Source: an uncultured Planctomycetia bacterium (GTDB lineage: Bacteria; Planctomycetota; MHYJ01; WSZJ01). Taken from it: 64,000 bases of DNA. The position numbers were made by a program, and so were the translations under genes. The notes beneath the pieces are model-generated. The model saw only the letters and a program-made list of their open reading frames with translations, made no database searches and was not told the origin of the DNA. Shown here one piece after another: positions 6,020 through 64,000 of this stretch; the first letter of the stretch is position 1; every line of letters starts with the position of its first letter. The stretch covers positions 14,756-78,755 of the forward strand of contig CAVPNQ010000161.1 in assembly GCA_963706735.1 (NCBI GenBank), written 5' to 3'.

Positions 6020-6979
6020 CTACTTCTCCGCCCCCGCGAGGCGCCGCGGCATGTCCTTCGACAGCGCCATCTCCTCCCGCGCCGCATCCAGCTCCGCGCG
6101 CAGCGTCCCGTTCTCCCGCTCCAGCCGCGCCAGCCTCTCGCGCAGCTCGTCCACCATGCCGCCTTCCTCTCCCTCGTCCTCGCCCGGTTCCGGCTCCGGT
6201 TTCAACTCCGGCTTCTTCGGGTCCTCCGGCTTCGGCGCAGCCTTCCCATCCTCGCCTTCCTTCCCGCCCGTCAGGCTCCGCGGCATCACACCCTCCGCAA
6301 TCGCCTTCAGCTCCGGGTCCTCCGGCCGCACCTTCAGCCCTCGCTCCGCCGACCGCTTCGCATCCGCATCCCGCCCGACACTCCACGCCGCCAGCGCCTT
6401 CATCTTCAGCACGTGATACCGGTCCGTCCGCGGAAGCGCGTAGTCCGACACCCGCGCCAGCTCCGCCAGCGTCGCTTCCATGTCGTTCCTGTCGAACGCC
6501 TCGTAGGCCCGGATCGAGGCGCCGAGGGTGGTGTCGGTGAAGTGCTTGTCGGACATGACCTCGAAGTCGTAGATCTCGATCCACGGCTGGCCGGCGAAAA
6601 CCGACTTGACCTCGCCCCAGACGGTCAGCCACGAGTAGCGCGGCGTCCCGAGGAAGTCGGCAAGCCATTCGCGGTCGCGGCGGACGAAGAGGTTCGTGAA
6701 GACGTCCTGGCGTTCCTTCGAGATGAAGACTTTCGACTCGGGGCCCCAGGCCGACACCTGCGCGTGCTGCTCCGCCGTGAACGCCGTGTGCACCGGCGCG
6801 TACATGTTCTCCGTCTTGTTCAGCCTGCACTTGAACGTCACCCGCGTGTTCCGGAATCCCTCGGGGTTGTTGCGGACTTCGCGCAGGGAGACGTGGGCAA
6901 AACCGGCTTCGTGCGCGGCCGCGGGAAGGGCGAGTGCGGCGGCGGCGAGTGCGGCCAGGGCGAGGCGGGGAAGCGACAT
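6020..6979 (-). CDS. Secreted hypothetical protein with acidic/coiled-coil C-terminus
   Basis: Signal peptide MSLPRLALAALAAAALALPAAAHEAG. Good codon usage from 6979 downward. The ORF-track extension to 7465 runs through repeat B1. Confidence 0.6.
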   Translation of the reverse strand: MSLPRLALAALAAAALALPAAAHEAGFAHVSLREVRNNPEGFRNTRVTFKCRLNKTENMYAPVHTAFTAEQHAQVSAWGPESKVFISKERQDVFTNLFVRRDREWLADFLGTPRYSWLTVWGEVKSVFAGQPWIEIYDFEVMSDKHFTDTTLGASIRAYEAFDRNDMEATLAELARVSDYALPRTDRYHVLKMKALAAWSVGRDADAKRSAERGLKVRPEDPELKAIAEGVMPRSLTGGKEGEDGKAAPKPEDPKKPELKPEPEPGEDEGEEGGMVDELRERLARLERENGTLRAELDAAREEMALSKDMPRRLAGAEK

Positions 6980-7037
6980 GGCGGGCTCCGGAAGGTGAGA
7001 GCGTTGAAAGGCTTGCGATGACTTTAGTGACGCCGGG

Positions 7038-7177
7038 GGCAAACGACAAGGAACCAACTCCCAACTCCCAAGGAAACGGAAAAACGCCAAAATCCAAAGT
7101 CCAACCGCGTTTGAAGTTGCCGTTTCGCCGTTTGTCGTTTCCTTGGGAGTTGGAATTTGGTTCCTTGTCGTTTCGCC
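7038..7177. repeat. Palindromic intergenic element B1: near-complete hairpin with ~70-nt arms
   Basis: ggcaaacgacaaggaaccaactcccaactcccaaggaaacgg... pairs with ...ccgtttgtcgtttccttgggagttggaatttggttccttgtcgtttcgcc. It starts with the 13-mer GGCAAACGACAAG. Confidence 0.85.
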
Positions 7178-7213
7178 TTCCCTCCGTTCGCCCTCCCCAA
7201 TCGTTAAACCCCC

Positions 7214-8260
7214 ATGCCCCTCCGCACCCGCCGCCGCGACCGCGGCATCGTCCTCCTCCTCGTCATGCTCATCCTCATGGTCCTGAGCGTCGTCGTCCTC
7301 CAGCTCGCCTTCAGCGCCGGCGTCGCCCAGCGCGCCGCTTCCAACCTCTCCCGCGACCTCCAGAACATGAAGGCTCTCACCAGCGGCCTGTCGATCGCCC
7401 GCCTCATGATCAAGGCCGACATCGAGGGGGATCTTGCGGAAGCGCCGACGCCGCCGCTCGACCACCTGGGCGAATCGATGATGCAGGACATCGCGCCGTA
7501 CCGCTTCAATGACGGCGGTACGGACGCGACGTCGCTCTACATCAAGATTGAGGACGAGGAGGGGAAGTACTACCTGCCGGCGCTGATCGACGCGAACGGC
7601 GCGGTGGTGGAGGACGAGAAGGAGAGGCTCGTCCGGATGCTCGAGTACGCGGGAATCGGCGATCCGGACACGCCGGACCGGATCGTGGCGGCGCTCGACA
7701 AGGACGACAAGAACGCGTTCGACAAGGAAGTGCCCAACCGGAAGCTGTACACGCTGAAGGAACTGCTCGGCGTGCCGGGGATCACCGACGAGATGTACTA
7801 CGGGAAGACGGTGGCGGGGGAGAAGCAGTACGGGCTGGCGGACATCATGTCGCTGTACGGTTCCGGCAAGGTGAACATCAACACGGCCCCCAAGCCCGTG
7901 CTCATGTCGCTCTCGACGTCCATCAGCGCTTCCGATGTAGACGGCATCGTCTCCGCCCGGGAGTCTTCCGACGACGAGGGCAACCCGGAGGTGTTCCAGA
8001 GCACTTCGTTCGAGGAACTGAGCCGGAGCGGGATGACAGAAGAGACGTACGCGACGGTTTCGGGGCGGATTGCGGTGCGTTCGAGCTGGTTCCGGTCGCG
8101 GATGCTGGCGCGGACGGGGAGTGTGCAGCGGTGGGGATCGGCGGTGATCCAGCGGGTGCAGGCGTCCACGAAGCTGGTGTTGTGGGAAGACGACCTGCGC
8201 TTCGCTCCCGATCCGGAAGAACTGAAGACGCAGGAAGACGCGATCGCGACGCCGAAGTAG
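7214..8260 (+). CDS. gspK: Type II secretion minor pseudopilin GspK-like protein
   Basis: N-terminal RGIVLLLVMLILMVLSVVVLQ hydrophobic segment, plus GspK-like KVNINTAPKPVLMSL and LKELLGVPGITDEMY helix-hairpin-helix-type motifs. Confidence 0.7.
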   Translation: MPLRTRRRDRGIVLLLVMLILMVLSVVVLQLAFSAGVAQRAASNLSRDLQNMKALTSGLSIARLMIKADIEGDLAEAPTPPLDHLGESMMQDIAPYRFNDGGTDATSLYIKIEDEEGKYYLPALIDANGAVVEDEKERLVRMLEYAGIGDPDTPDRIVAALDKDDKNAFDKEVPNRKLYTLKELLGVPGITDEMYYGKTVAGEKQYGLADIMSLYGSGKVNINTAPKPVLMSLSTSISASDVDGIVSARESSDDEGNPEVFQSTSFEELSRSGMTEETYATVSGRIAVRSSWFRSRMLARTGSVQRWGSAVIQRVQASTKLVLWEDDLRFAPDPEELKTQEDAIATPK

Positions 8261-8264
8261 CTAA

Positions 8265-8601
8265 CTGCAGTTGCCAGCGGCGAGTGGCCAGCGGCCAGCG
8301 GCGAGTGGCCAGTGGCCAGTGGCCAGCGGCCAGCGGCCAGTGGCGAGCGGCAAGTGGCCAGCGGCAAGTGGCCAGCGGCCAGTGGCCAGTGGCCAGTGGC
8401 GAGCGGCAAGTGGCAAGTGGCGAGCGGCAAGTGGCGAGCGGCGAGGAGCAGGAATAGAACGCAGTCTTCGCCGGGCTGCGGCGCACTCACTCGCCGCTGG
8501 CCACTGGCAACTGGCCGCTGGCAACTGGCCACTGGCAACTGGCCACTGGCAACTGGCCACTGGCAACTGGCCGCTGGCAACTGGCAACTGGCCACTGGCA
8601 G
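8265..8601. repeat. Heptamer tandem-repeat hairpin H1: (GCCAGYG)n arm facing its reverse complement
   Basis: 8265-8447 holds about 25 degenerate heptamers (ggccagc/ggccagt/ggcgagt/ggcaagt). 8489-8601 holds about 16 complementary heptamers (actggca/actggcc/gctggca). The central spacer is about 40 nt. Confidence 0.9.
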
Positions 8602-8677
8602 TTCCCCGCGAAAGCGATTGACGGTACAACCTCGCCTCTCCTACACTACTCGGCTCCCTGCATTCCCGGAAACGCCC

Positions 8678-11464: not shown

Positions 11465-11493
11465 CGCATTCCGCGGCGCGGAGCGCCGCCCCG

Positions 11494-11580
11494 TTCCCGT
11501 GCGCGTGCCCGTGCCCGTGCCCGGCCGTTCCGTGCAAGCAACGGCCGGGCACGGGCACGGGCACGGGCACGCGCACGGGG
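11494..11580. repeat. Hexamer tandem-repeat hairpin H2: (GTGCCC)3 facing (GGGCAC)4
   Basis: cccgtgcgc-gtgccc x3-ggccgtt / loop ccgtgcaagc / aacggcc-gggcac x4-gcgcacggg. No U tract follows. Confidence 0.85.
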
Positions 11581-11614
11581 CGTCGCTTTGCGGTGCTCGT
11601 GACACGGAGGGCTC

Positions 11615-16224: not shown

Positions 16225-16448
16225 GGGTTGCGCGTTGGGAGTTCCGGAAGTTGAGTTCGGGGTTCGGAGTTCAGCGTTCAGGGTTCGGTTGGGGTTTCGA
16301 GTGCGTTCGTGGTCCGGAGTTCCGGGACGGCCGGGAAGCCGACCCCCAACTCACCCAACAACCCCCCACCCCCAACTCCAAACCGAACCCCAAACTCCGA
16401 ACTCAGAACCCCGAACTCAACTTCCGGAACCCCAACCCTCAACCCCCT
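16225..16448. repeat. Palindromic intergenic element H3 with GTTCGGR-type repeat arms
   Basis: The left arm ...gagttccggaagttgagttcggggttcggagttcag... pairs with the right arm ...ctcagaaccccgaactcaacttccggaacccc... The centre is about 60 nt. Confidence 0.85.
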
Positions 16449-20012: not shown

Positions 20013-20070
20013 GAGGGGCGGGATTCTAAGCGAAGAGCCCGATTCTCTTCCCTACTTCTGGCCCTATTGC

Positions 20071-20262
20071 GTGGGGGCCGGGAGGGGAAACGGCAAAGGC
20101 AAAACGGAGAACCCTCAAGCAAACGACAAAAGGCAAACGACAAGTCGGGCAGTGCGTCGAGTGGTTGCCGGGTGGCATCATCCGGGAATTGTGTTCTCTG
20201 TTTTGCTTTTGGCGTTTGGTTTGCGTTTCGCAGTTTTGAGTTTGCCTTTTCGCGGCCATGGC
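20071..20262. repeat. Palindromic intergenic element A1 (A family, + orientation)
   Basis: gggaggggaaacggcaaaggcaaaacggagaaccctcaagcaaacgacaaaaggcaaacgacaag / core caagtcgggcagtgcgtcgagtggttgccggg (20141-20172) / gttctctgttttgcttttggcgtttggtttgcgtttcgcagttttgagtttgccttttcgcgg. Confidence 0.9.
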
Positions 20263-20289
20263 TCCGTGCTTGTCCCGGTTTCCCCCGGT

Positions 20290-27423: not shown

Positions 27424-27469
27424 GGGAGCATGCTAAGAACTGCGGCGGACTTCGCGCACGAACCTTCGG

Positions 27470-27649
27470 GTGCATGGCCGCGAAAAGGCAAACTCAAAAC
27501 TGCGAAACGCAAACCAAACGCCAAAAGCAAAACGGAGAAGACAATTCACGGACGCAAGCCAATCGTCGACCTGCCTGACTTGTCGTTTGCAGTTTGTCGT
27601 TTGCTTGAGGGTTCTCCTTTTTGCGTTTGCCCTTTCCCTCCCGTCCACC
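27470..27649. repeat. Palindromic intergenic element A2 (A family, reverse orientation)
   Basis: Reverse complement aligns end to end with A1 and A3. The outer arms are near-identical, e.g. cgaaaaggcaaactcaaaactgcgaaacgcaaaccaaacgccaaaagcaaaac. The core lies at 27549-27582. Confidence 0.9.
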
Positions 27650-27739
27650 CCGCACTCCCAGCCCGCACCCCCTTGGGCGAACCACCTTGTTCCTCCCCCC
27701 CCGCGCGGCTAGAATCGCCCCTCCAAGGAGAGGATCGCC

Positions 27740-28264
27740 ATGGAAGAGCCACAGCAGCAGGTTGCACCTCCGGCGGCGCCCGCGGCGGCGGACGGGCGGC
27801 TGGACAAGCTGGTGGAGAAGATCGGGATCCTCGAGCAGCTCTTCGTGAAGCGCATCAAGGACGACGGGGTGCATGCGGCGGCGTACAGTTCGCTGCACCA
27901 GGAGATGTCGAAGTACCGGGACGACGCGTTCCGTGGGGCGCAGAAGCCGCTGTTGAAGGGGCTGGTGCTGTTGTACGACACGATGAAGAGGTCGCTGTCG
28001 GGGATGGGGGAAGGGCCGGCGCGGGAGGCGGTGGAGTTGCATGTGGAGGAGTTGCTGGAGCTGATGCACCGGCACGAGGTGGAGAAGATGTCGGAGGTGC
28101 CTGCGAAGTACGACAAGGGGGTGCAGCAGGCGCTGGGGACGGAGCCTGCGGCGACGGCGGGGGAGGACCAGGCGGTGGTGAGGGTGGTGAGGGACGGGTT
28201 TCGGTGGAACGGGAGCGTTTTGAGGCCGCAAGAAGTTGTGATCAAGACTTTCCGCCCGGCGTAG
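27740..28264 (+). CDS. GrpE-like nucleotide-exchange factor (short form)
   Basis: 174 aa. Helical region LLKGLVLLYDTMKRSL, then a C-terminal beta domain ...VVRVVRDGFRWNGSVLRPQEVVIK matching the GrpE C-terminal pattern. RBS aaggagag. Confidence 0.7.
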   Translation: MEEPQQQVAPPAAPAAADGRLDKLVEKIGILEQLFVKRIKDDGVHAAAYSSLHQEMSKYRDDAFRGAQKPLLKGLVLLYDTMKRSLSGMGEGPAREAVELHVEELLELMHRHEVEKMSEVPAKYDKGVQQALGTEPAATAGEDQAVVRVVRDGFRWNGSVLRPQEVVIKTFRPA

Positions 28265-28274
28265 ACGAACGAGA

Positions 28275-28302
28275 GTTGCGGGTTGCGGGTTGCGAGTTGC
28301 GA
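28275..28302. repeat. Four tandem heptamers GTTGCGR
   Basis: gttgcgg gttgcgg gttgcga gttgcga directly after the grpE-like stop. Confidence 0.8.
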
Positions 28303-28340
28303 GGAACGGCTGCACATGGGGCCCGGGTTGTCGCGGGCCT

Positions 28341-28482
28341 TATCTGCCGACGTTTCTGCGAAATCTGTTTTCATCTGTGTCCCCCTCGGCAGCTACTTTC
28401 AGGAATTCGTGGCCAGTCGAGGTGCATGGGCTTGCGACGGGAACACAGACAAGGCCGGATTTCGCAGAAACGTCGGCAGATA
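28341..28482. repeat. 142-bp element bounded by a perfect 25-bp inverted repeat (MITE-like or RNA/DNA hairpin)
   Basis: tatctgccgacgtttctgcgaaatc (28341-28365) is the exact reverse complement of gatttcgcagaaacgtcggcagata (28458-28482). Inner partial pairing catctgtgtcccc / gggaacacagac. The outermost dinucleotide of each arm is TA. Confidence 0.85.
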
Positions 28483-28560
28483 CATCATTTTCCAACCGCA
28501 GGTGTCGTTGAAGTTCGGTTCCTGTCGTTCCGTCGATCCACCCTTGAGAGGAGAACGGCC

Positions 28561-30150
28561 ATGGCTGACGACAAGCCCCCGATGACGTGCGGTATCGACC
28601 TGGGCACGACCAACAGCGCGATCGCCTACATCGACGAGCACGGCAAGGCGCAGGTGATCCAGAATACGGACAACGAGCGGATCACGCCGTCGGTGGCGCT
28701 CTTCGAGGAGACGGAAGTCCTCGTCGGAAAGATCGCGAAGAACTCGGCGGTCGCGGCGCCGGACCGGGTGGTGCAGTTCGTGAAGCGGCACATGGGCGAA
28801 GAGGGATGGGTGAAGACGTTCTTCGGGAAGGAGTACACGCCCGAGACGATCAGCGCGCTGATCCTGAAGCGCATCGTGCAGGACGCCGAGAAGGTGAGCG
28901 GGCGGAAGGTTGGGAGCGTGGTGATCACGGTCCCGGCGTACTTCAACGAGGTCGAGCGCAAGGCGACGCAGGACGCGGGGACGATCGCGGGCCTGAACGT
29001 GGTCTCGATCCTGAACGAGCCGACGGCGGCGGCGCTGGCGTACGGGATGGACAAGCTGGGCGAGAAGCGCCGGGTGCTGGTGTACGACCTGGGCGGCGGG
29101 ACGTTCGACGTGACGATCATCGAGATCGACGGGACGAAGATCGACGTGCTGGCGACGGACGGCGAGCGGCGGCTGGGCGGCATCGACTGGGACGACGAGA
29201 TCATCAACCTGGTGAGCGAGAAGTTCCAGACGGAGCACGGGATCGACCCGCGCAACGACCTCGAGGCGTGCCAGGACCTGCGCAACAAGGCGGAAGACGC
29301 GAAGATCAGCCTGTCGAAGCTCGACAAGGTGCGCATCCTCTGCCAGTGCCAGGGGAAGACGACGAAGGTCGAGCTGACTCGCGAGGAGTTCGAGAAGATC
29401 ACGAAGGGGCTGCTCGACCAGACGGAGACCTATCTCGGCGTCGTGCTGCAGAAGGCGAAGCTGACGTGGAAGGACATCGGGACGACGCTTCTCGTCGGCG
29501 GCATGACGCGCATGCCCGCGGTGCGGTCGATGATCGAGCGCGTGACGGGGACGAAGCCGGAGACGGGCATCAACCCCGACGAGTGCGTCGCGATGGGCGC
29601 CGCGTACTACAACGCCGTCCTCGCGCTGCAGGCCAAGCCCTCCGAGGAGCCCGCCCTGGCGCTTCAGGGAGAATCGCTCAAGGAGTCGATCGACGAGGAA
29701 GTCATGATCCTGCTGCAGGGGGTCGAGGTCACCAACGTGAACTCGCACTCGCTGGGGATCATCGGCATCCGGAAGTCGGACATGAAGCTGGTGGCGCACA
29801 AGATGATTCCGAAGAACACGCCGATCCCGGCGGAGATCACCAAGCCGTTCGGGACGGAGAAGGCGAACCAGGTCAGCGTGCAGATCAAGATTGTCGAGGG
29901 CGACAGCGACAACCCCGAGGATTGCACGGAGATCGGGTGCTGCGAGATCAAGGACCTGCCGGCGGGCCGGCCCGCGGGGTCGCTGATCGACGTGACCTAC
30001 TCGTACAGCGTGGACGGGCGCCTGCAGGTGACCGGCAAGGACCGGACTTCGGGCAAGGAAGCCAGGGTCGAGATCGTCCGGACCAGCGGCATGGATGACG
30101 CCGCGATCAAGGACGCGAAGAAGGATGTCGTCGGGATGGAGGTGGGGTAG
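28561..30150 (+). CDS. Atypical Hsp70-family chaperone lacking the C-terminal helical lid (HscC-like)
   Basis: Motifs GIDLGTTNSAIA, DLGGGTFDV and LVGGMTRMP. The substrate-binding beta domain ends at residue ~529 with no lid or EEVD tail. Only the last 529 codons of the listed 1890-aa ORF are real. Confidence 0.9.
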   Translation: MADDKPPMTCGIDLGTTNSAIAYIDEHGKAQVIQNTDNERITPSVALFEETEVLVGKIAKNSAVAAPDRVVQFVKRHMGEEGWVKTFFGKEYTPETISALILKRIVQDAEKVSGRKVGSVVITVPAYFNEVERKATQDAGTIAGLNVVSILNEPTAAALAYGMDKLGEKRRVLVYDLGGGTFDVTIIEIDGTKIDVLATDGERRLGGIDWDDEIINLVSEKFQTEHGIDPRNDLEACQDLRNKAEDAKISLSKLDKVRILCQCQGKTTKVELTREEFEKITKGLLDQTETYLGVVLQKAKLTWKDIGTTLLVGGMTRMPAVRSMIERVTGTKPETGINPDECVAMGAAYYNAVLALQAKPSEEPALALQGESLKESIDEEVMILLQGVEVTNVNSHSLGIIGIRKSDMKLVAHKMIPKNTPIPAEITKPFGTEKANQVSVQIKIVEGDSDNPEDCTEIGCCEIKDLPAGRPAGSLIDVTYSYSVDGRLQVTGKDRTSGKEARVEIVRTSGMDDAAIKDAKKDVVGMEVG

Positions 30151-30309
30151 GGCGAAGGCAAACGACAAGGAACCAACCTCCAAAGGACAAGGAAACGGCA
30201 AAGGCCAAAGGGAAAATTTCCAAGCCGGCGCGGAATCCGGATTGGCGTTCGGCGTTTTTCCCTTTGGCGTTTACTTGTCGTTTGGAATGTTGGAAGTTGT
30301 CGTTTCCGG
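30151..30309. repeat. Palindromic intergenic element B2
   Basis: ggcgaaggcaaacgacaaggaaccaacctccaaaggacaaggaaacggcaaaggccaaaggg... pairs with ...ccctttggcgtttacttgtcgtttggaatgttggaagttgtcgtttccgg. It shares the first ~25 nt with B1. Confidence 0.85.
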
Positions 30310-30350
30310 TCCGCTCCCCCCGCCAACCTTCTCCCTGATCGAGGCCCCCT

Positions 30351-31607
30351 TTGGCTGAAAACCGCTTCCACGAAGTCCTCGGCCTTCCCGAGGAATGCAC
30401 CGACCCCGACTACTACCAGCTTCTCGGGATCGAGCGGACGCTCACGGACGCGCCGTCGATCGAGGCGAAGTTCAAGGAGCGGATGACGCGGGTGCAGCAC
30501 ATCGAGAACCCGCGGCACAAGGAGTTCATCGAGTTCCTGAAGGGGGAGCTGAAGCGGGCGCGCGGGATCCTGACGGACGGGGGGCGGCGGGCGGAGTACG
30601 ACCGGGAGCTGGCGGAGGAGCGCGGCGAGGAACTGCGCAAGATCCTGGGGCACATGCTGGTGGACGGAGCGCTGTCGTCGATCGCGGAGGTCTCGGTGTT
30701 CCGCGAGGGGCACAACCTGGGGCTCGACCCGGCCTTCACCAAGCGCGTCGTGGACGAGGAGCTGGCGAAGGCGGGAGCGCGCCGCGTGACGGCCGCCGTC
30801 TCCGGCGCCAACGGCCACCAGACCCAGGTCCTCATGAACCAGAAGGCCCAGGAGGTGGCGCGGCAGGCGCAGGAAGCGCGCATGGCGGCGCGGCTGGCCG
30901 AGGCGCGGGCGAAGATGGCCGAGACGGACAAGCGGCGCGCGGAGCAGCAGGTCGTGGCGGTGTCGGAGAAGGCGCGCGAGGCGATGAGCCGGGCGCAGCT
31001 TGCGGAACTGGAGAAGAAGAAGGCGCAGCAGACGGTCCTGGCGGTGTCCGAGAAGGCGCGCGCCGCCGTGAACCGGATGCAGGTCGCCGAGACGGACAAG
31101 AAGCGCGCCGAGCAGACCGTGCAGCGCGTGCAGGAGAAGGCGCGGGCGGCGCAGGAGATGGCGCGCAAGGCGATCAACCGCGAGCAGATGCTCGCGATGC
31201 GCCAGCAGATGTCGGAAGCGGCGCGCCGCAGGCTGGAGGAGCAGTTCACGGAGGCGGAGTCGCGGCTGCAGGCGTACGTCGAGGCTTCCAACGAGGAACT
31301 GGAGTCGGCGAAGCAGGACGGCGTCAAGTGGCAGCGGCTGACCGGGGCGTACGCCGCGATCACGATGGCGCTCGTCGGCGGCGCCGCGATGCCGAAGTAC
31401 GTCCCCGCCGCTTCCGAGGCGATCCACCGGCTGCTCGACCCGCATCTCGCCCGGGCCGGAACCATCCCTCACGCCGCGATCCCCCTCGCGGCCGCCGTGG
31501 TCATGCTGCTCCCGCTTCACTGGCTCGCCGGCAAGCGCTCGACCGGTTTCTACGCGCCGCTGCTCGTCGTGCTCGCGCTTGCGGCGCTGGCCGGGATGCT
31601 GCGGTAG
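30351..31607 (+). CDS. J-domain-like protein without HPD, with a coiled-coil repeat region and C-terminal TM anchors
   Basis: TTG start. N-terminus has DYYQLLGIERTLTDAPSIEAKFKERM...RAEYDREL but no HPD tripeptide. There are three ~28-aa repeats (ETDKRRAEQQVVAVSEKAREAM.. etc.) and two or three hydrophobic C-terminal segments. Confidence 0.65.
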   Translation: MAENRFHEVLGLPEECTDPDYYQLLGIERTLTDAPSIEAKFKERMTRVQHIENPRHKEFIEFLKGELKRARGILTDGGRRAEYDRELAEERGEELRKILGHMLVDGALSSIAEVSVFREGHNLGLDPAFTKRVVDEELAKAGARRVTAAVSGANGHQTQVLMNQKAQEVARQAQEARMAARLAEARAKMAETDKRRAEQQVVAVSEKAREAMSRAQLAELEKKKAQQTVLAVSEKARAAVNRMQVAETDKKRAEQTVQRVQEKARAAQEMARKAINREQMLAMRQQMSEAARRRLEEQFTEAESRLQAYVEASNEELESAKQDGVKWQRLTGAYAAITMALVGGAAMPKYVPAASEAIHRLLDPHLARAGTIPHAAIPLAAAVVMLLPLHWLAGKRSTGFYAPLLVVLALAALAGMLR

Positions 31608-41397: not shown

Positions 41398-41700
41398 ATG
41401 AGCGGCAAGAATCTGTTCGGCGAGATGGTGCAGAATGAAGAATCGTCGAAGAGTGCGGTTCCGGCGAAGAAGCGGGTGGGTCCCGCCAAACTGCTGCGGG
41501 CGGAGAGAAACCAGGATCTGCTGACGCCGACAGATCTTGAGGGGCTGTTGCCGGCCGATCACGTCGCCCGCGGCATGTGGGAACTGCTCGGGAAACTGGA
41601 TCTTGCGCGTTTCCTGGCCGCGATCGATTCGCGGGAAGCCGAGGCGGGGCCGCCGGCGATCAGCACCTCCCCAGGCCGGGCGATCCACACCTCCTCGCGC
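41398..41700 (+). pseudogene. Remnant of an IS5/IS1182-type transposase N-terminus (DUF772-like)
   Basis: ...RNQDLLTPTDLEGLLPADHVARGMWELLGKLDLARFLAAI... resembles the conserved N-terminal transposase region. The reading frame then degenerates and no catalytic domain follows. Confidence 0.5.
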
Positions 41701-41804
41701 GCCGGACGGGCCGGTGGCGCGTGCCGTAGGGCGAATGTTTCTCGCGCTCTCAGTGCGGGACGTCACGATCCGGCTGAAGGCCGACGAGCAGGTCGGCGGG
41801 GCTT

Positions 41805-48575: not shown

Positions 48576-48633
48576 AGATTGGACGAAAGACGGCAGACAC
48601 GGCGGCGGGTACAGGTCTTGTGATTGGCGTTTG

Positions 48634-48691
48634 TTCGGGCCCCGAAAGGGCAAACTCAAAACGGCGAAACACAAAGCGAAACGCCAAAAGC
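48634..48691. repeat. A-family element A4, left half (interrupted copy, reverse orientation)
   Basis: ccccgaaagggcaaactcaaaacggcgaaacacaaagcgaaacgccaaaagc aligns with the first ~55 nt of A2, then similarity stops abruptly. Confidence 0.85.
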
Positions 48692-50394
48692 TAACGCGGC
48701 CTGTGGCCGCAACCAAATGAGCTGGTTCTCAATAGACACGGCGTTTCTTCCCTTGTAGGAATGCGGTTGCGAAGCGTCATTCCTGCGCAATCGGAGAGAA
48801 ACGCCGTGAATCTCTTTATATCAAAGCATGGCCGTGACGTCACCGGAGTGCTGTCAGGTTTCGACCGGATGCTTTTTTTCGCGACGATCCGGGCCATCTC
48901 GTTCGCCGGGGGGATGGCTGCTTTGCTGAAGAGGATGGGCGTGGCCCTGCAGGGCTTTGGAGAGTTCGTCGAGGACTGTACTGAGCGCCTGCTCAGGTCA
49001 ACGTTGGCTCTTCCGATCTCGCGAGGGCGGCCGAGTCTGTTCCTCCGCGGCAACGATGTCCGAAAGAATGAGTATGCCGAGGAGATCGCGCATCGCGACA
49101 AGATCCGCGACGGGCTGATCTGCACCTTCCGCGCTGTGGAGCCCTGCAAGACCTTCCGCGTTCGCAAGCACGGGAAGAATAGCCTGAAGGTGACCTACGA
49201 GCGCACCAAGTGCATCCACGTGTACCACTACTTCATGGACCCCGTGTTCGGGTTCATGCACGCGCGGCTGCAGAGCTGGTTTCCGTTCAGCATCCAGATC
49301 TGCATCAACGGCAGAGAGTGGCTGTCGCGCCAGATGGATGGAGCCGGTTTGACTTACACGAAGCGGGAGAATTGCTTCCTTCAGATCGAAGACTGGAAGC
49401 GCGCACAGGACCTTGCGACTGAGCAACTCCGGACGCCCTGGACGCAACAGTTGTCCCGGATCGTCCGGGTGGTGGCTTCTGCGGTCCCGGGAATCCTCGG
49501 CGTCAGGGGCTGCGACTACTACTACACGCTCCGGCAGAGCGAGTGGGCCACCGATGTTCTCTTCAAAGACACGGCAGTCCTGGATCGATTGATGCCGTCT
49601 CTGACCCGTCACTCGATCCTCTCCCTGGGCTGCGACAACGTGATGCGGTTCCTGGGGACGAGCAAACCGAATGGGAATCTTCGGCGGTCCGTAAAAAGCT
49701 ACCTCAGGAGCGAGCGCCGGGAAGGCCTGCGCGTCAAACACTGGTTCGGGCACAACTCCATCAAGCTCTACCAGAAACACGGGACCGTCCTGCGCGCCGA
49801 GACGACGATCAACCAGGCCGGTGAATTCACCGTGCTGCGCCCCAAGGACGGAGATCCGAAAGGCGAGTGCAGGCGCCGTGTCATGCGCCAGGGGATTGCG
49901 GATCTCTACCGGCGCTCACAGGTTTCTGACCGCGCTAACAAAAACTACCTCGATGCCATCAGCGCCGCCGACACATCGGCCGCCCTGGGAGATGTCTTCC
50001 AGCGCGTCATCACACCTGTCGAGCAGGGCGGAAAGCGATCAAGAGGACTGCGGCCTTGGTCGCCGGACGATCTCAAGCTCTTCAAGTTCATCATGGACGG
50101 GAAGTTCCATCTCAGAGGCTTCAGGAACTTCGACCTTCGGAAGGTGCTCTTCCCGATACCAACTCATGACCCGGTTGAACGCAGAAAACGATCGGCAAAG
50201 GCCAGCAGGCTCCTGCGCCTGCTCAGGGCTCACGGACTGATAAAAAAACTGCCCCTATCCCGCTCGTACAGGGTCACCAAAGGCGGTCGTGAGACTCTCG
50301 CTACGATACTGGTGGCGCAAGGTCTTACGCTCGATGCGATGAAAGCAAGCGCATAACATCGTCGCGAAAAACGAAGATCCTCGGGGTTATAAGT
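48692..50394 (+). mobile_element. ~1.7 kb insertion splitting repeat A4; carries one unrecognised ORF; no terminal inverted repeats and no clear target duplication
   Basis: Joining 48691 to 50395 restores an A-family element colinear with A2. The insert is visibly more AT-rich than its flanks. There is a 6-bp stem hairpin gcggcc-tgt-ggccgc at 48696-48710 near the left end. Confidence 0.6.
48761..50356 (+). CDS. Hypothetical 531-aa protein with C-terminal winged-helix-like segment (candidate transposase/recombinase of unknown family)
   Basis: Long ORF with regular coding appearance and no motif I can assign. The C-terminus RLLRLLRAHGLIKKLPLSRSYRVTKGGRETL looks like a wHTH. The better start may be GTG 48806, preceded by ggagag. 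Confidence 0.75.
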   Translation: MRLRSVIPAQSERNAVNLFISKHGRDVTGVLSGFDRMLFFATIRAISFAGGMAALLKRMGVALQGFGEFVEDCTERLLRSTLALPISRGRPSLFLRGNDVRKNEYAEEIAHRDKIRDGLICTFRAVEPCKTFRVRKHGKNSLKVTYERTKCIHVYHYFMDPVFGFMHARLQSWFPFSIQICINGREWLSRQMDGAGLTYTKRENCFLQIEDWKRAQDLATEQLRTPWTQQLSRIVRVVASAVPGILGVRGCDYYYTLRQSEWATDVLFKDTAVLDRLMPSLTRHSILSLGCDNVMRFLGTSKPNGNLRRSVKSYLRSERREGLRVKHWFGHNSIKLYQKHGTVLRAETTINQAGEFTVLRPKDGDPKGECRRRVMRQGIADLYRRSQVSDRANKNYLDAISAADTSAALGDVFQRVITPVEQGGKRSRGLRPWSPDDLKLFKFIMDGKFHLRGFRNFDLRKVLFPIPTHDPVERRKRSAKASRLLRLLRAHGLIKKLPLSRSYRVTKGGRETLATILVAQGLTLDAMKASA

Positions 50395-50513
50395 CAAAAG
50401 GGAGAAAAACGGGCCCTCGCCGCATCGACGAAGCTGCCTGACTTGTCGTTTGCCTCTTGCCGTTTCATTGAGAGTTCTCCGTTTTGCCTTTGCCGTTTCC
50501 CCTCCCGACCACC
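50395..50513. repeat. A-family element A4, right half
   Basis: caaaagggagaaaaacggg...catcgacgaagctgcctgacttgtcgtttgcctcttgccgtttcattgagagttctccgttttgcctttgccgtttcccctccc aligns with the core and right arm of A2. Confidence 0.85.
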
Positions 50514-50539
50514 CTGCAATACCGACCACGCACCCGGGG

Positions 50540-61636: not shown

Positions 61637-62926
61637 TTACCGCCGGCCGTTCATGTCCACCCAGGACCGCTCTGCGGCGCCGGTGTAGATCTGCCGGGGC
61701 CGGGCGATCTTGAGGTCCTTGTCCTCCATCTGCTCGTTCCACTGCGCGAGCCAGCCGGACATGCGGGGGATGGAGAACAGGACGGGGAACATCTCCACGG
61801 GGAAGCCCATCGCCTGGTAGATCAGGCCCGAGTAGAAGTCCACGTTCGGGTAGAGCTTGCGCTTCACGAAGTATTCGTCCTGAAGCGCGATGCGTTCGAG
61901 TTCGAGGGCGATGTCGAGCTTGGGGTTGCGGCCGGTGACGTCGAAGACCTCGTCGGCAAGGCGCTTGATGGTGCGGGCGCGGGGGTCGTAGTTCTTGTAG
62001 ACGCGGTGGCCGAAGCCCATCAGCTTGCCGTGGCCCTCCTTGACTTCCTTGATGAAGGCGGGCACGCGGTCCTTGTGGCCGATTTCGGCGAGCATGCGGA
62101 GGACGGCCTCGTTCGCGCCGCCGTGAAGCGGGCCCCAGAGCGCCGCCGCGGCGCCGGCCGCGGAGGAATACGGGTCCGCGTCCGAGCTCGAGATGCTCCG
62201 CATCGAGTTGGTGCTGCAGTTCTGCTCGTGGTCGGCGTGGAGGATGAAGAGCACGTCGAGCGCGCGGACGAGCTTCGGGTTCGCGTCGTAGCGTCCCTCG
62301 GCCATCTTCCAGAGCATCGACATGAAGTTGCCCGCGTAGCCAAGCGAGTTGTCCGGGTAGACGTACGGGCGGCCGACGCTGTGCCGGTACGCGAACGCGG
62401 CGATCGTCGGGACCTTGGCGATGAGGCGGAAGATCTGCTGCTTGCGCGACTCGGGGTCGTGGACGTTGCGGGCGTCGGTGTAGAACGTCGAGAGCGCGCT
62501 CAGCGTGCTGGCGAGCATCCCCATCGGGTGCGCGTCGTAGTGGAAGCCGTCCATCAGCTTCTTCATGTTCTCGTGCAGCATCGTGTGGTGCGTGATCCCC
62601 GCGACCCAGTCGTCGAACTGCGTCTTCGTCGGCAGTTCCCCGTGGACCAGCAGGTACGCCACTTCGAGGTAGTTGCTCTTTTCGGCCAGCTGCTCGATCG
62701 GGTACCCGCGGTAGCGCAGGATGCCCTTGTCGCCGTCGATGAACGTCACCGCGCTCTTGCACGACGCCGTGTTCATGAACGCCGGGTCGTAGGTCATGAG
62801 GCCGAAGTCTTCCTCGCTGACCTTGATCTGGCGGAGATCGACGGCCTTCACGGTGCCGTCGGAAATGGGCAGCTCGTACTGCTTGCCGGTGCGGTTGTCG
62901 GTGACGGTCAGGGTGTTGCGGGCCAC
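61637..62926 (-). CDS. gltA: Citrate synthase (type II, GltA)
   Basis: Motifs LRYRGYPIEQL, ILHADHEQNCSTN, GPLHGGANE and MGFGHRVYKNYDPR. GTG start preceded by aaggag. Confidence 0.95.
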   Translation of the reverse strand: MARNTLTVTDNRTGKQYELPISDGTVKAVDLRQIKVSEEDFGLMTYDPAFMNTASCKSAVTFIDGDKGILRYRGYPIEQLAEKSNYLEVAYLLVHGELPTKTQFDDWVAGITHHTMLHENMKKLMDGFHYDAHPMGMLASTLSALSTFYTDARNVHDPESRKQQIFRLIAKVPTIAAFAYRHSVGRPYVYPDNSLGYAGNFMSMLWKMAEGRYDANPKLVRALDVLFILHADHEQNCSTNSMRSISSSDADPYSSAAGAAAALWGPLHGGANEAVLRMLAEIGHKDRVPAFIKEVKEGHGKLMGFGHRVYKNYDPRARTIKRLADEVFDVTGRNPKLDIALELERIALQDEYFVKRKLYPNVDFYSGLIYQAMGFPVEMFPVLFSIPRMSGWLAQWNEQMEDKDLKIARPRQIYTGAAERSWVDMNGRR

Positions 62927-63036
62927 GGGAAACTCCTTGAGCGCTGCGGGGCGAAGGTGCGAGTGGCGGGACGGACTGAAAGATACTCGGTGAGGCGGGG
63001 AGGACAAGGGTTTCCGGGGGGATGGAGGCCCTGGGA

Positions 63037-63231
63037 GGGTGGCCGGGAGGGGAAACGGCAAACGCAAAAGGGAGAACCCTCAAGCAAACGACAAAGGGCA
63101 AACGACAAGACAGGCAGTTCGTCGAATGGCTTGCCGGGTGGCGTCAGCCGTGAATTTTGTTCTCTGTTTTGCCTTTGGCGTTTGGTTTTGCGTTTCGCGG
63201 TTTTGAGTTTGCCTTTTCGAGCCCACGCACC
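63037..63231. repeat. Palindromic intergenic element A3 (A family, + orientation)
   Basis: Colinear with A1 over its whole length. The core caagacaggcagttcgtcgaatggcttgccggg lies at 63106-63138. Confidence 0.9.
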
Positions 63232-63278
63232 CGGGGACAGAACTTCCCCTCCGGCAGGCCCCGCCCTACGATACTCCC

Positions 63279-64000
63279 ATGCCCACCGCCCCTCCCGCCC
63301 GCCCCGCCCCGATGGTCTCGATGCCGGCCGTCGATTTCGACAAGACGCCCTTCATCGTCATCTGGGAAACCACCCAGGCCTGCGACCTCGCCTGCAAGCA
63401 CTGCCGCGCCAACGCCATCGCCGGCCCCATCCCCGGCGAGCTCACGACGAAGGAAGGCAAGAACCTCATCGACCAGGTCGCCGACATGGGCGCGCCCCTC
63501 ATGGTGCTCTCCGGCGGCGACCCCGCGACGCGCGACGACCTGTTCGAACTGGTGAAGTACGGCAAGAAGCGCGGCCTGCGCATGGCCACCATCCCGGCCG
63601 CCACGCCGCGCCTCACGCGCGACCTCGTCTTCAAGCTCAAGGACGCGGGCCTCGACCAGATCGCCTTCAGCCTCGACTTCCCCAACGCCGAGCTCCACGA
63701 CGCCTTCCGCGGCGTCCCGGGGGCGTTCGCGAAGACGCTTCAGGGGATCGCGTGGGCCAAGGAAGCGGGCATCCCGCCGCAGGTGAACTCGTGCGTCTGG
63801 GGCGGGTCGAGCCTGTACCTGCAGGAGATGGCCGACCTGATCGAGAAGCTGGGCGTGGTGTTCTGGGAAGTGTTCTTCCTGGTGCCGACGGGTCGGGGCA
63901 CGGATATCGCCGGGCTCAACGCGACTCACTGCGAAGAGCTCTTCGAGATCCTCATGAAGGCGCAGGCGAAACAGAAGTACATCCTGAAGGTCACCGAGGC
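63279..64000 (+). CDS. Radical SAM protein, 3' end beyond window
   Basis: CDLACKHC (CX3CX2C) about 35 residues from the ATG; SAM-binding LVLSGGDP-type motif (MVLSGGDPA). The frame is open to nt 64000. Confidence 0.85.
   Translation, partial: MPTAPPARPAPMVSMPAVDFDKTPFIVIWETTQACDLACKHCRANAIAGPIPGELTTKEGKNLIDQVADMGAPLMVLSGGDPATRDDLFELVKYGKKRGLRMATIPAATPRLTRDLVFKLKDAGLDQIAFSLDFPNAELHDAFRGVPGAFAKTLQGIAWAKEAGIPPQVNSCVWGGSSLYLQEMADLIEKLGVVFWEVFFLVPTGRGTDIAGLNATHCEELFEILMKAQAKQKYILKVTE

Follow-up and report, generated by a model that had tools for sequence, protein, structure and literature searches.

An intergenic repeat family of an uncultured Planctomycetota lineage, very probably a MITE, and an IS-like element found within it

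Four copies of a sequence of roughly 190 nt lie in a stretch of DNA from an uncultured Planctomycetota bacterium (hereafter the window, the whole of the 64,000 nt analysed), and the question that they raise is whether such a repeat is a mobile element or a regulatory module of its host. The first-pass annotation favoured a dispersed, possibly mobile, non-coding element and offered a conserved cis-regulatory or sRNA module as the alternative. The repeat, referred to here as the A-family, is very probably a miniature inverted-repeat transposable element (MITE), a DNA transposon that has no gene of its own and does not move autonomously, and belongs to an uncultured lineage of Planctomycetota; the evidence for this reading is set out below, together with the properties of a second element that splits one of the four copies and with the unusual conservation of the arms of the repeat.

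Extent and architecture of the A-family

All four copies were recovered in the 64-kb window where they had been annotated, by alignment, k-mer counts and an nhmmer profile (Table 1). A left-arm 25-mer occurs exactly three times in the window and a right-arm 24-mer twice, with 0 occurrences expected in shuffled sequence for either; E-values with the profile, which was built from the four copies, are 1e-67 to 1e-70 for A1–A3 and 1e-40 and 4e-16 for the halves of A4. A1–A3 can be aligned over ~190 nt with a mean column identity of 82% in an alignment that includes the flanks. The two arms of the repeat, previously judged about two-thirds complementary to each other, pair at 69–78% over ~67 nt, with complementarity scores of 46–53 against a mean of ~14 and a maximum of 34.5 in shuffles. 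The window as a whole is GC-rich (63–74% in 2-kb windows).

Further copies were sought by scanning one genome per species for an exact right-arm 22-mer, which matched 16 contigs of the Planctomycetota MAG JAIOPR01 (Lake Fargette) and 1 contig of WSZJ01; a scan of JGI metagenome contigs yielded one further copy. When these copies were aligned together with their flanks, similarity ran beyond the extents originally assigned, up to a pair of 22-bp terminal inverted repeats (TIRs; GGGTGCATGGCCGGTATTGCAG ... CTGCAATNCCGGCCATGCACCC). The copies are thus present as first reported, and TIR alignment places their true ends outside the coordinates given at that time. The TIRs, with 0–5 mismatches, are found at both ends of six JAIOPR01 copies of 216–265 bp, and a TIR of the same family is also found at the left end of the window copy A4. 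At its left end, the element has the 22-bp TIR (GGGTGCATGGCCGGTATTGCAG), next to which lies a GC-rich subterminal block (GGTGGCCGGGAGGGG). An A-rich arm of ~57 nt, a variable core of ~50 nt and a T-rich arm of ~60 nt follow, and the motif CGCGGCC, in some copies with a tail of ~30 nt behind it, leads to the right TIR. Two right-end forms can be told apart: the long form carries ~30 additional nt ahead of the right TIR, and in the short form (A2, A3 and locus L001) CGCGGCC directly adjoins the final bases of the TIR. The A-family also comprises at least two core subfamilies; that of A4 has a distinct core (…GGCAGCTTCGTCGATGCGGCG…) and a distinct right tail (CGAACAAACGCCAAACA…), and two further genomes and several metagenomes also contain it (including loci L012 and L002). 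Variants in which the left arm is the reverse complement of the right arm are also seen (L022), and a diverged tail of A1 may extend towards 20300. Copies measure 203–265 bp. The open reading frames that cross them are only mechanical and differ from copy to copy; no conserved one is present.

Table 1. Positions of A-family copies and of associated and related elements in the window.
Feature	Position	Strand	Description
A1	20051-20264 (about)	+	MITE copy: left TIR decayed (its inner 13 nt at 20060-20072), followed by the A-rich arm, core and T-rich arm, and by CGCGGCCATGGCTC
A2	27468-27670	-	Short-form copy, 203 bp; 11-nt core deletion; right end GGCCATGCACCC at 27468, left TIR remnant GGGTGCGGGCTGG ending at 27670
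A3	63016-63232	+	Short-form copy, 217 bp
A4, right-arm half	48607-48690	-	Subfamily-specific tail CGAACAAACGCCAATCACAAGAC
A4, left half	50395-50535	-	Core, A-rich arm and left TIR (GGGTGCGTGGTCGGTATTGCAG, well kept, at 50514-50535)
IS-like insertion in A4	48691-50394	+	1,704 bp; ends CTAACGCGGCC... and ...GGGGTTATAAGT
Circle or tandem junction of the insertion in A4			Predicted sequence: GGGGTTATAAGT followed directly by CTAACGCGG
B-like palindromic relative	7035-7185	n/a	GGCAAACGACAAGGAACCAA...TTGGTTCCTTGTCGTTTCGCC; between divergent genes
B-like palindromic relative	30140-30315	n/a	Between the DnaK-like stop codon (30150) and the start of the J-domain gene

The sequence immediately outside the TIRs bears the mark of insertion. 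The 9 nt on either side match at 4, 7, 6, 8, 1 and 8 of 9 positions in the six JAIOPR01 copies, against 2.2 on average and 5 at most in a control of 30 mismatched left-right pairs; these matches are a 9-bp target-site duplication (TSD). The flanks of the short-form copy L001, read directly from the alignments, match at 7 of 9 positions. The copies of the window are less well preserved: the left TIRs of A1, A2 and A3 agree with the consensus at 8/13, 13/22 and 13/22 positions, respectively, and no recognisable TSD was found at A2, A3 or A4 (1, 3 and 2 of 9 matches).

A1–A3 had been placed between divergently transcribed genes and close to start codons, which is confirmed by the revised ends, located 25–89 nt from the start codons of the divergent neighbours. 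A1 is flanked by a class-V aminotransferase gene (minus strand, start 20012) and a gene for a hemerythrin-domain protein (start 20290 or 20302); A2 by the minus-strand gene (start 27423) of a Ser/Thr kinase that carries an FGE-sulfatase domain and by a GrpE-like gene (27740), behind which lies a DnaK-like gene; and A3 by a citrate synthase gene (minus strand, GTG at 62926 behind AAGGAG) and a gene at 63279 that probably encodes a radical-SAM protein, judging by the CxxxCxxC motif in its translation. The neighbours of A4, by contrast, are not divergent: both are plus-strand genes and thus co-oriented. Exact-protein look-ups with the citrate synthase (where a query that did not begin at a start codon is the probable cause) and with the hemerythrin protein (start uncertain) returned no match.

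Copy number, mobility and assignment

Copies of the A-family are dispersed over 4 positions in the 64-kb window, 16 loci in one MAG and two other genomes. In eight DNA metagenomes, read depth over the element is 20–80 times that of its flanks (170–500 vs. 8–15, 110–650 vs. 3–8 and 90–670 vs. 5–20, for example) and contigs break at the element; the excess of depth corresponds to tens of copies per genome. Within the JAIOPR01 MAG, copies occupy divergent, tandem and convergent intergenic sites in either orientation, so that every type of intergenic context is represented. Repeats confined to the loci of the window and conserved there in synteny had been regarded beforehand as the mark of local regulatory DNA; another genome has at least 16 more copies, all at unrelated loci, and the one orthologous site available holds a different family member in each genome. 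At that site, in a region (6327–7306) which is syntenic with locus L008 and has 78–79% identity in coding DNA, a B-like element (7035–7185) is found in the window and an A-family copy in the MAG. The A-family copies of the two genomes are 84–92% identical and intermixed in clustering, whereas the coding DNA of the two is 78–80% identical (three alignable stretches); the family has therefore either been active since the lineages split or moved between them. The kinase gene beside the copy at L014 was considered as a synteny test for A2 and rejected, being a paralogue at 45% amino-acid identity.

Empty sites in relatives, which the first-pass annotation had proposed to look for, were found at two loci. 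A contig from run X28 joins position 1278 of L017 to position 1547 and skips 268 nt, the combined length of the element (259 nt) and one copy of the 9-nt duplication (GCCCGGGTT and GCCCGGCTT); 6 letters at the joint are common to both sides. A 663-nt contig from run X26 consists of L015 418–585, 12 unlike letters and L015 820–1302, so that the element at 604–819 is missing and the right junction falls on the first base past the TIR. No clean empty site was found for A1 or A3 in four metagenomes (runs X1–X4). Since the copies of the window have poor left TIRs and lack a recognisable TSD, it is for the family, and not for A1–A3 themselves, that mobility has been demonstrated.

The assignment of the A-family to the MITEs is made because the element is small and gene-free, is bounded by TIRs and a duplication of fixed length (9 bp), is present in many dispersed copies and is polymorphic for insertion, with empty sites in relatives. 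The expectation of a dispersed, mobile, non-coding element is upheld on these grounds. No description of the A-family was found in the literature searched, and in that literature the MITE is not described before. A full-length IS with A-family TIRs was found neither in the window nor in 19 loci nor in IMG/VR: a TIR search of the window and loci gave matches only at MITE ends, TIR and arm patterns gave 0 matches in IMG/VR, and blastn against plasmids likewise gave none. At locus L006, a fragment and a full copy surround one gene; a composite or autonomous element was considered there but discarded, because the enclosed gene is a lipoprotein-like host gene. Staggered cuts of 9 bp and TIRs of 22 bp point to a DDE transposase, and an enzyme of this type, encoded by a full-length IS with the same TIRs, would mobilise the A-family in trans. 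A1–A3 are probably older, immobilised copies with decayed termini, and A4 was probably struck later by a site-specific, IS-like element that is unrelated to the A-family.

Bacterial MITEs with long imperfect palindromes include Correia/NEMIS in Neisseria, ERIC/IRU in Enterobacteriaceae, RUP, Nezha and others (PMC3733652). Like the A-family, bacterial MITEs are short (70–300 bp) and non-coding, with TIRs of 15–30 bp and a target duplication (PMC3733652). They share with it many intergenic copies, presence/absence polymorphism, a hairpin formed by the whole element and, often, a position near gene starts. The A-family differs from them in its unrelated sequence, its Planctomycetota host, its 9-bp duplication, the A3–4 tracts spaced ~7 nt apart in its arms, the better preservation of these arms relative to the TIRs, its long and short right-end forms and its two or more core subfamilies. 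Correia elements duplicate TA. In practical terms, the A-family breaks short-read assemblies of these Planctomycetota, with contigs ending at the element in every metagenome examined, and marks insertion polymorphism at the level of strains.

The 1.7-kb element within A4

No terminal inverted repeats were found in the 1,704-bp sequence that interrupts A4 and, because the halves of A4 align without a gap at the junction once it is removed, its insertion made no duplication. It contains one open reading frame, from ATG 48761 or GTG 48806 to 50356 (~515–531 aa). In run X1, depth over the element is 70–80 at 100% identity, against 6–8 for its flanks, which indicates about ten copies; there are one or two copies in runs X2 and X3 and none in X4. 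An identical reading frame is present on seven further contigs from seven runs (loci L020–L026). In the eight independent contigs, the element always has one orientation and is joined to its target as CAAA(A/G)G^element^CAAAA, and every readable flank of the element is an A-family arm. No target other than the A-family was observed for this multi-copy element of 1.7 kb.

The protein of ~520 aa encoded by this element has no sequence match in Pfam, NCBIfam or the PDB. Matches by tblastn are limited to hypothetical proteins, at 21–33% identity, on plasmids of the Burkholderia group, Rhodococcus and Mycobacterium; its family comprises 5,589 cluster representatives, most of them of 505–540 aa. A domain scan of 68 relatives gave weak matches of winged-helix type (in at most 12 members) and two matches in single members. 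An AlphaFold model made with the 68 relatives is confident (pLDDT 91.4, pTM 0.83) but has no fold match in the PDB at E ≤ 0.001; it comes closest to known structures, and then only in part, with a TBP-like sheet and a C-terminal winged helix. The alignment contains 15 invariant columns, including D35, R36, E127, Y155, Y157, E261, Y337, R345 and E347. The protein is a candidate transposase or recombinase of a new family. If it is indeed the enzyme of insertion, that family would have sequence specificity built in.

Insertion of this kind, at a fixed site within a repeated palindrome, recalls two known systems. In one, bridge or seek RNAs direct IS110/IS1111 elements to REP sequences (PMC11208160, PMC11187229, PMC12288879). 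The A4-splitting element, but not the A-family, resembles them in having a single gene and neither TIRs nor target duplication, in its strict specificity of site and orientation for insertion into a repeated palindromic element, and in a non-coding segment of ~70–115 nt with a hairpin at one end (the 5' end, with the hairpin at 48737–48808); it differs in that Pfam and NCBIfam searches find no DEDD transposase (PF01548, PF02371). The likeness is one of behaviour. The second system is the REP, BIME and REPIN elements, intergenic palindromes that are highly repeated and are preferred landing sites of specific insertion sequences (PMC3733652). The A-family is likewise an intergenic imperfect palindrome and the target of a site-specific IS-like element, and could on that account be taken for an element of REP, BIME or REPIN type mobilised by a RAYT (HUH tyrosine transposase). 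However, REPs measure 20–40 bp, have neither TIR nor TSD and bear a GTAG or CGTC tag (PMC3733652), whereas the A-family, at 200–265 bp, is 5–10 times longer and has a DDE-style footprint, with 22-bp TIRs and a 9-bp duplication that HUH transposition does not produce; no RAYT was seen. That origin is scarcely credible.

Arm conservation, RNA structure and neighbouring genes

The alternative put forward at the outset, of a multi-copy sRNA gene or a cis-regulatory RNA leader, assumes a discrete, structured transcript of ~190 nt. The plus strand of A1 does fold better than the minus strand (-78 kcal/mol, z = -3.7, vs. -52 kcal/mol, z = -1.65), and the plus strand is the more stable in 11 of 13 copies; but the gap between strands is below 12 kcal/mol in all copies except A1, and an asymmetry inherited from one ancestor counts as a single event. 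Searches of Rfam returned nothing relevant, either for the whole window at the gathering threshold or for A1 at E = 10. RNAalifold, applied to 13 copies, predicts a long imperfect hairpin with an unfavourable covariation term (+1.08) and compensatory changes in 2 of 55 pairs, and a sigma-70 promoter scan of the A-family gave no match. Lacking an Rfam match, covariation or a sigma-70 match, the sRNA or cis-regulatory reading is left without support; and since TIRs, TSD and empty sites are features of DNA transposons, it is judged very improbable.

The arms themselves are A- or T-rich, at 46–48% GC within a genome of 68% GC, and carry an A or T tract every ~7 nt. In the window copies, arms agree at 329/352 positions (93%) as against 34/57 (60%) for the left TIR (p = 2e-10). 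Pairwise identity among five full copies of the MAG is highest for the arms (91–92%), followed by the TIRs (83–85%), the core (83%) and the tail (72%), and the excess of arms over TIRs is a weak trend (p = 0.03). As all segments of one inserted copy are of equal age, neutral decay does not predict arms that are better conserved than TIRs. Arms that outlast the transposon ends hint at use by the host or at gene conversion between copies; selection on the arms, such conversion, and overwriting of the ends near gene starts are all possible causes.

Selection would imply that the A-family, although derived by transposition, has been exapted, so that the AT-rich arms of retained copies now serve the host. 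Three roles can be proposed: a long RNA hairpin that sets the stability or processing of mRNA; a bidirectional, terminator-like unit made up of A-tract, GC hairpin and T-tract; or AT-rich upstream DNA, or an array of protein-binding sites, near promoters of a 68% GC genome. Besides the conservation and base composition of the arms, several observations are in keeping with such a role: A1–A3 fill most of three divergent promoter regions, A3 is retained at the same site in related strains (metagenome contigs), the core contains a small, terminator-like hairpin followed by a T-rich tract, and A-family contigs are present in two RNA libraries (X23 and X24). These contigs are unstranded, however, and the libraries may include DNA; there is neither covariation nor a promoter consensus; the orientation of copies relative to flanking genes is unbiased (~5 same to 3 opposite); copies occupy all types of context; and the additional decay of the ends could stem from uncertainty of alignment or from overwriting beside gene starts. 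On balance, exaptation of the arms appears unlikely, if considerably less so than an sRNA gene. Also doubtful is a combined reading, in which the arms are under selection and at the same time serve as a dedicated landing pad, CAAARG^CAAAA, for a class of site-specific elements not described before, which encode the ~520-aa protein; were this reading true, that protein would represent a novel type of DNA-insertion enzyme.

As a MITE, the A-family may nonetheless act on adjoining genes: effects through an RNA hairpin, through the terminator-like core or through AT-rich upstream DNA are possible, and expression of the chaperone operon, the citrate synthase gene and the kinase gene may be changed in this way. 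Two boundaries within the cluster of GrpE-like, DnaK-like and J-domain genes (27424–31607) are occupied by repeats: A2 precedes the GrpE-like gene, and a B-like hairpin separates the DnaK-like gene from the J-domain gene. Both B-like elements of the window were found by nhmmer as more distant relatives of the A-family; they have GGCAAACGACAAG in common with its interior and possess ends of their own (GGCAAACGACAAGGAACCAA...).

Other intergenic repeats were observed in the window. A GC-rich repeat of 57 nt (41697–41753) is 86–89% identical to L010 3284–3340 and 3377–3430; in the JAIOPR01 MAG it forms an inverted doublet ~36 nt apart and is REP/REPIN-like. Long intergenic hairpins at 8268–8609, 11477–11592 and 16238–16433, each of which begins ~10–35 nt past a stop codon, have arms composed of complementary runs of ~7-nt tandem repeats (of the types GGCCAGY/GGCGAGY, CCCGTGC and GGAGTTC/GGGTTCG). 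Hairpins built of heptad repeats look like a genome-wide habit, which the arms of the A-family resemble.
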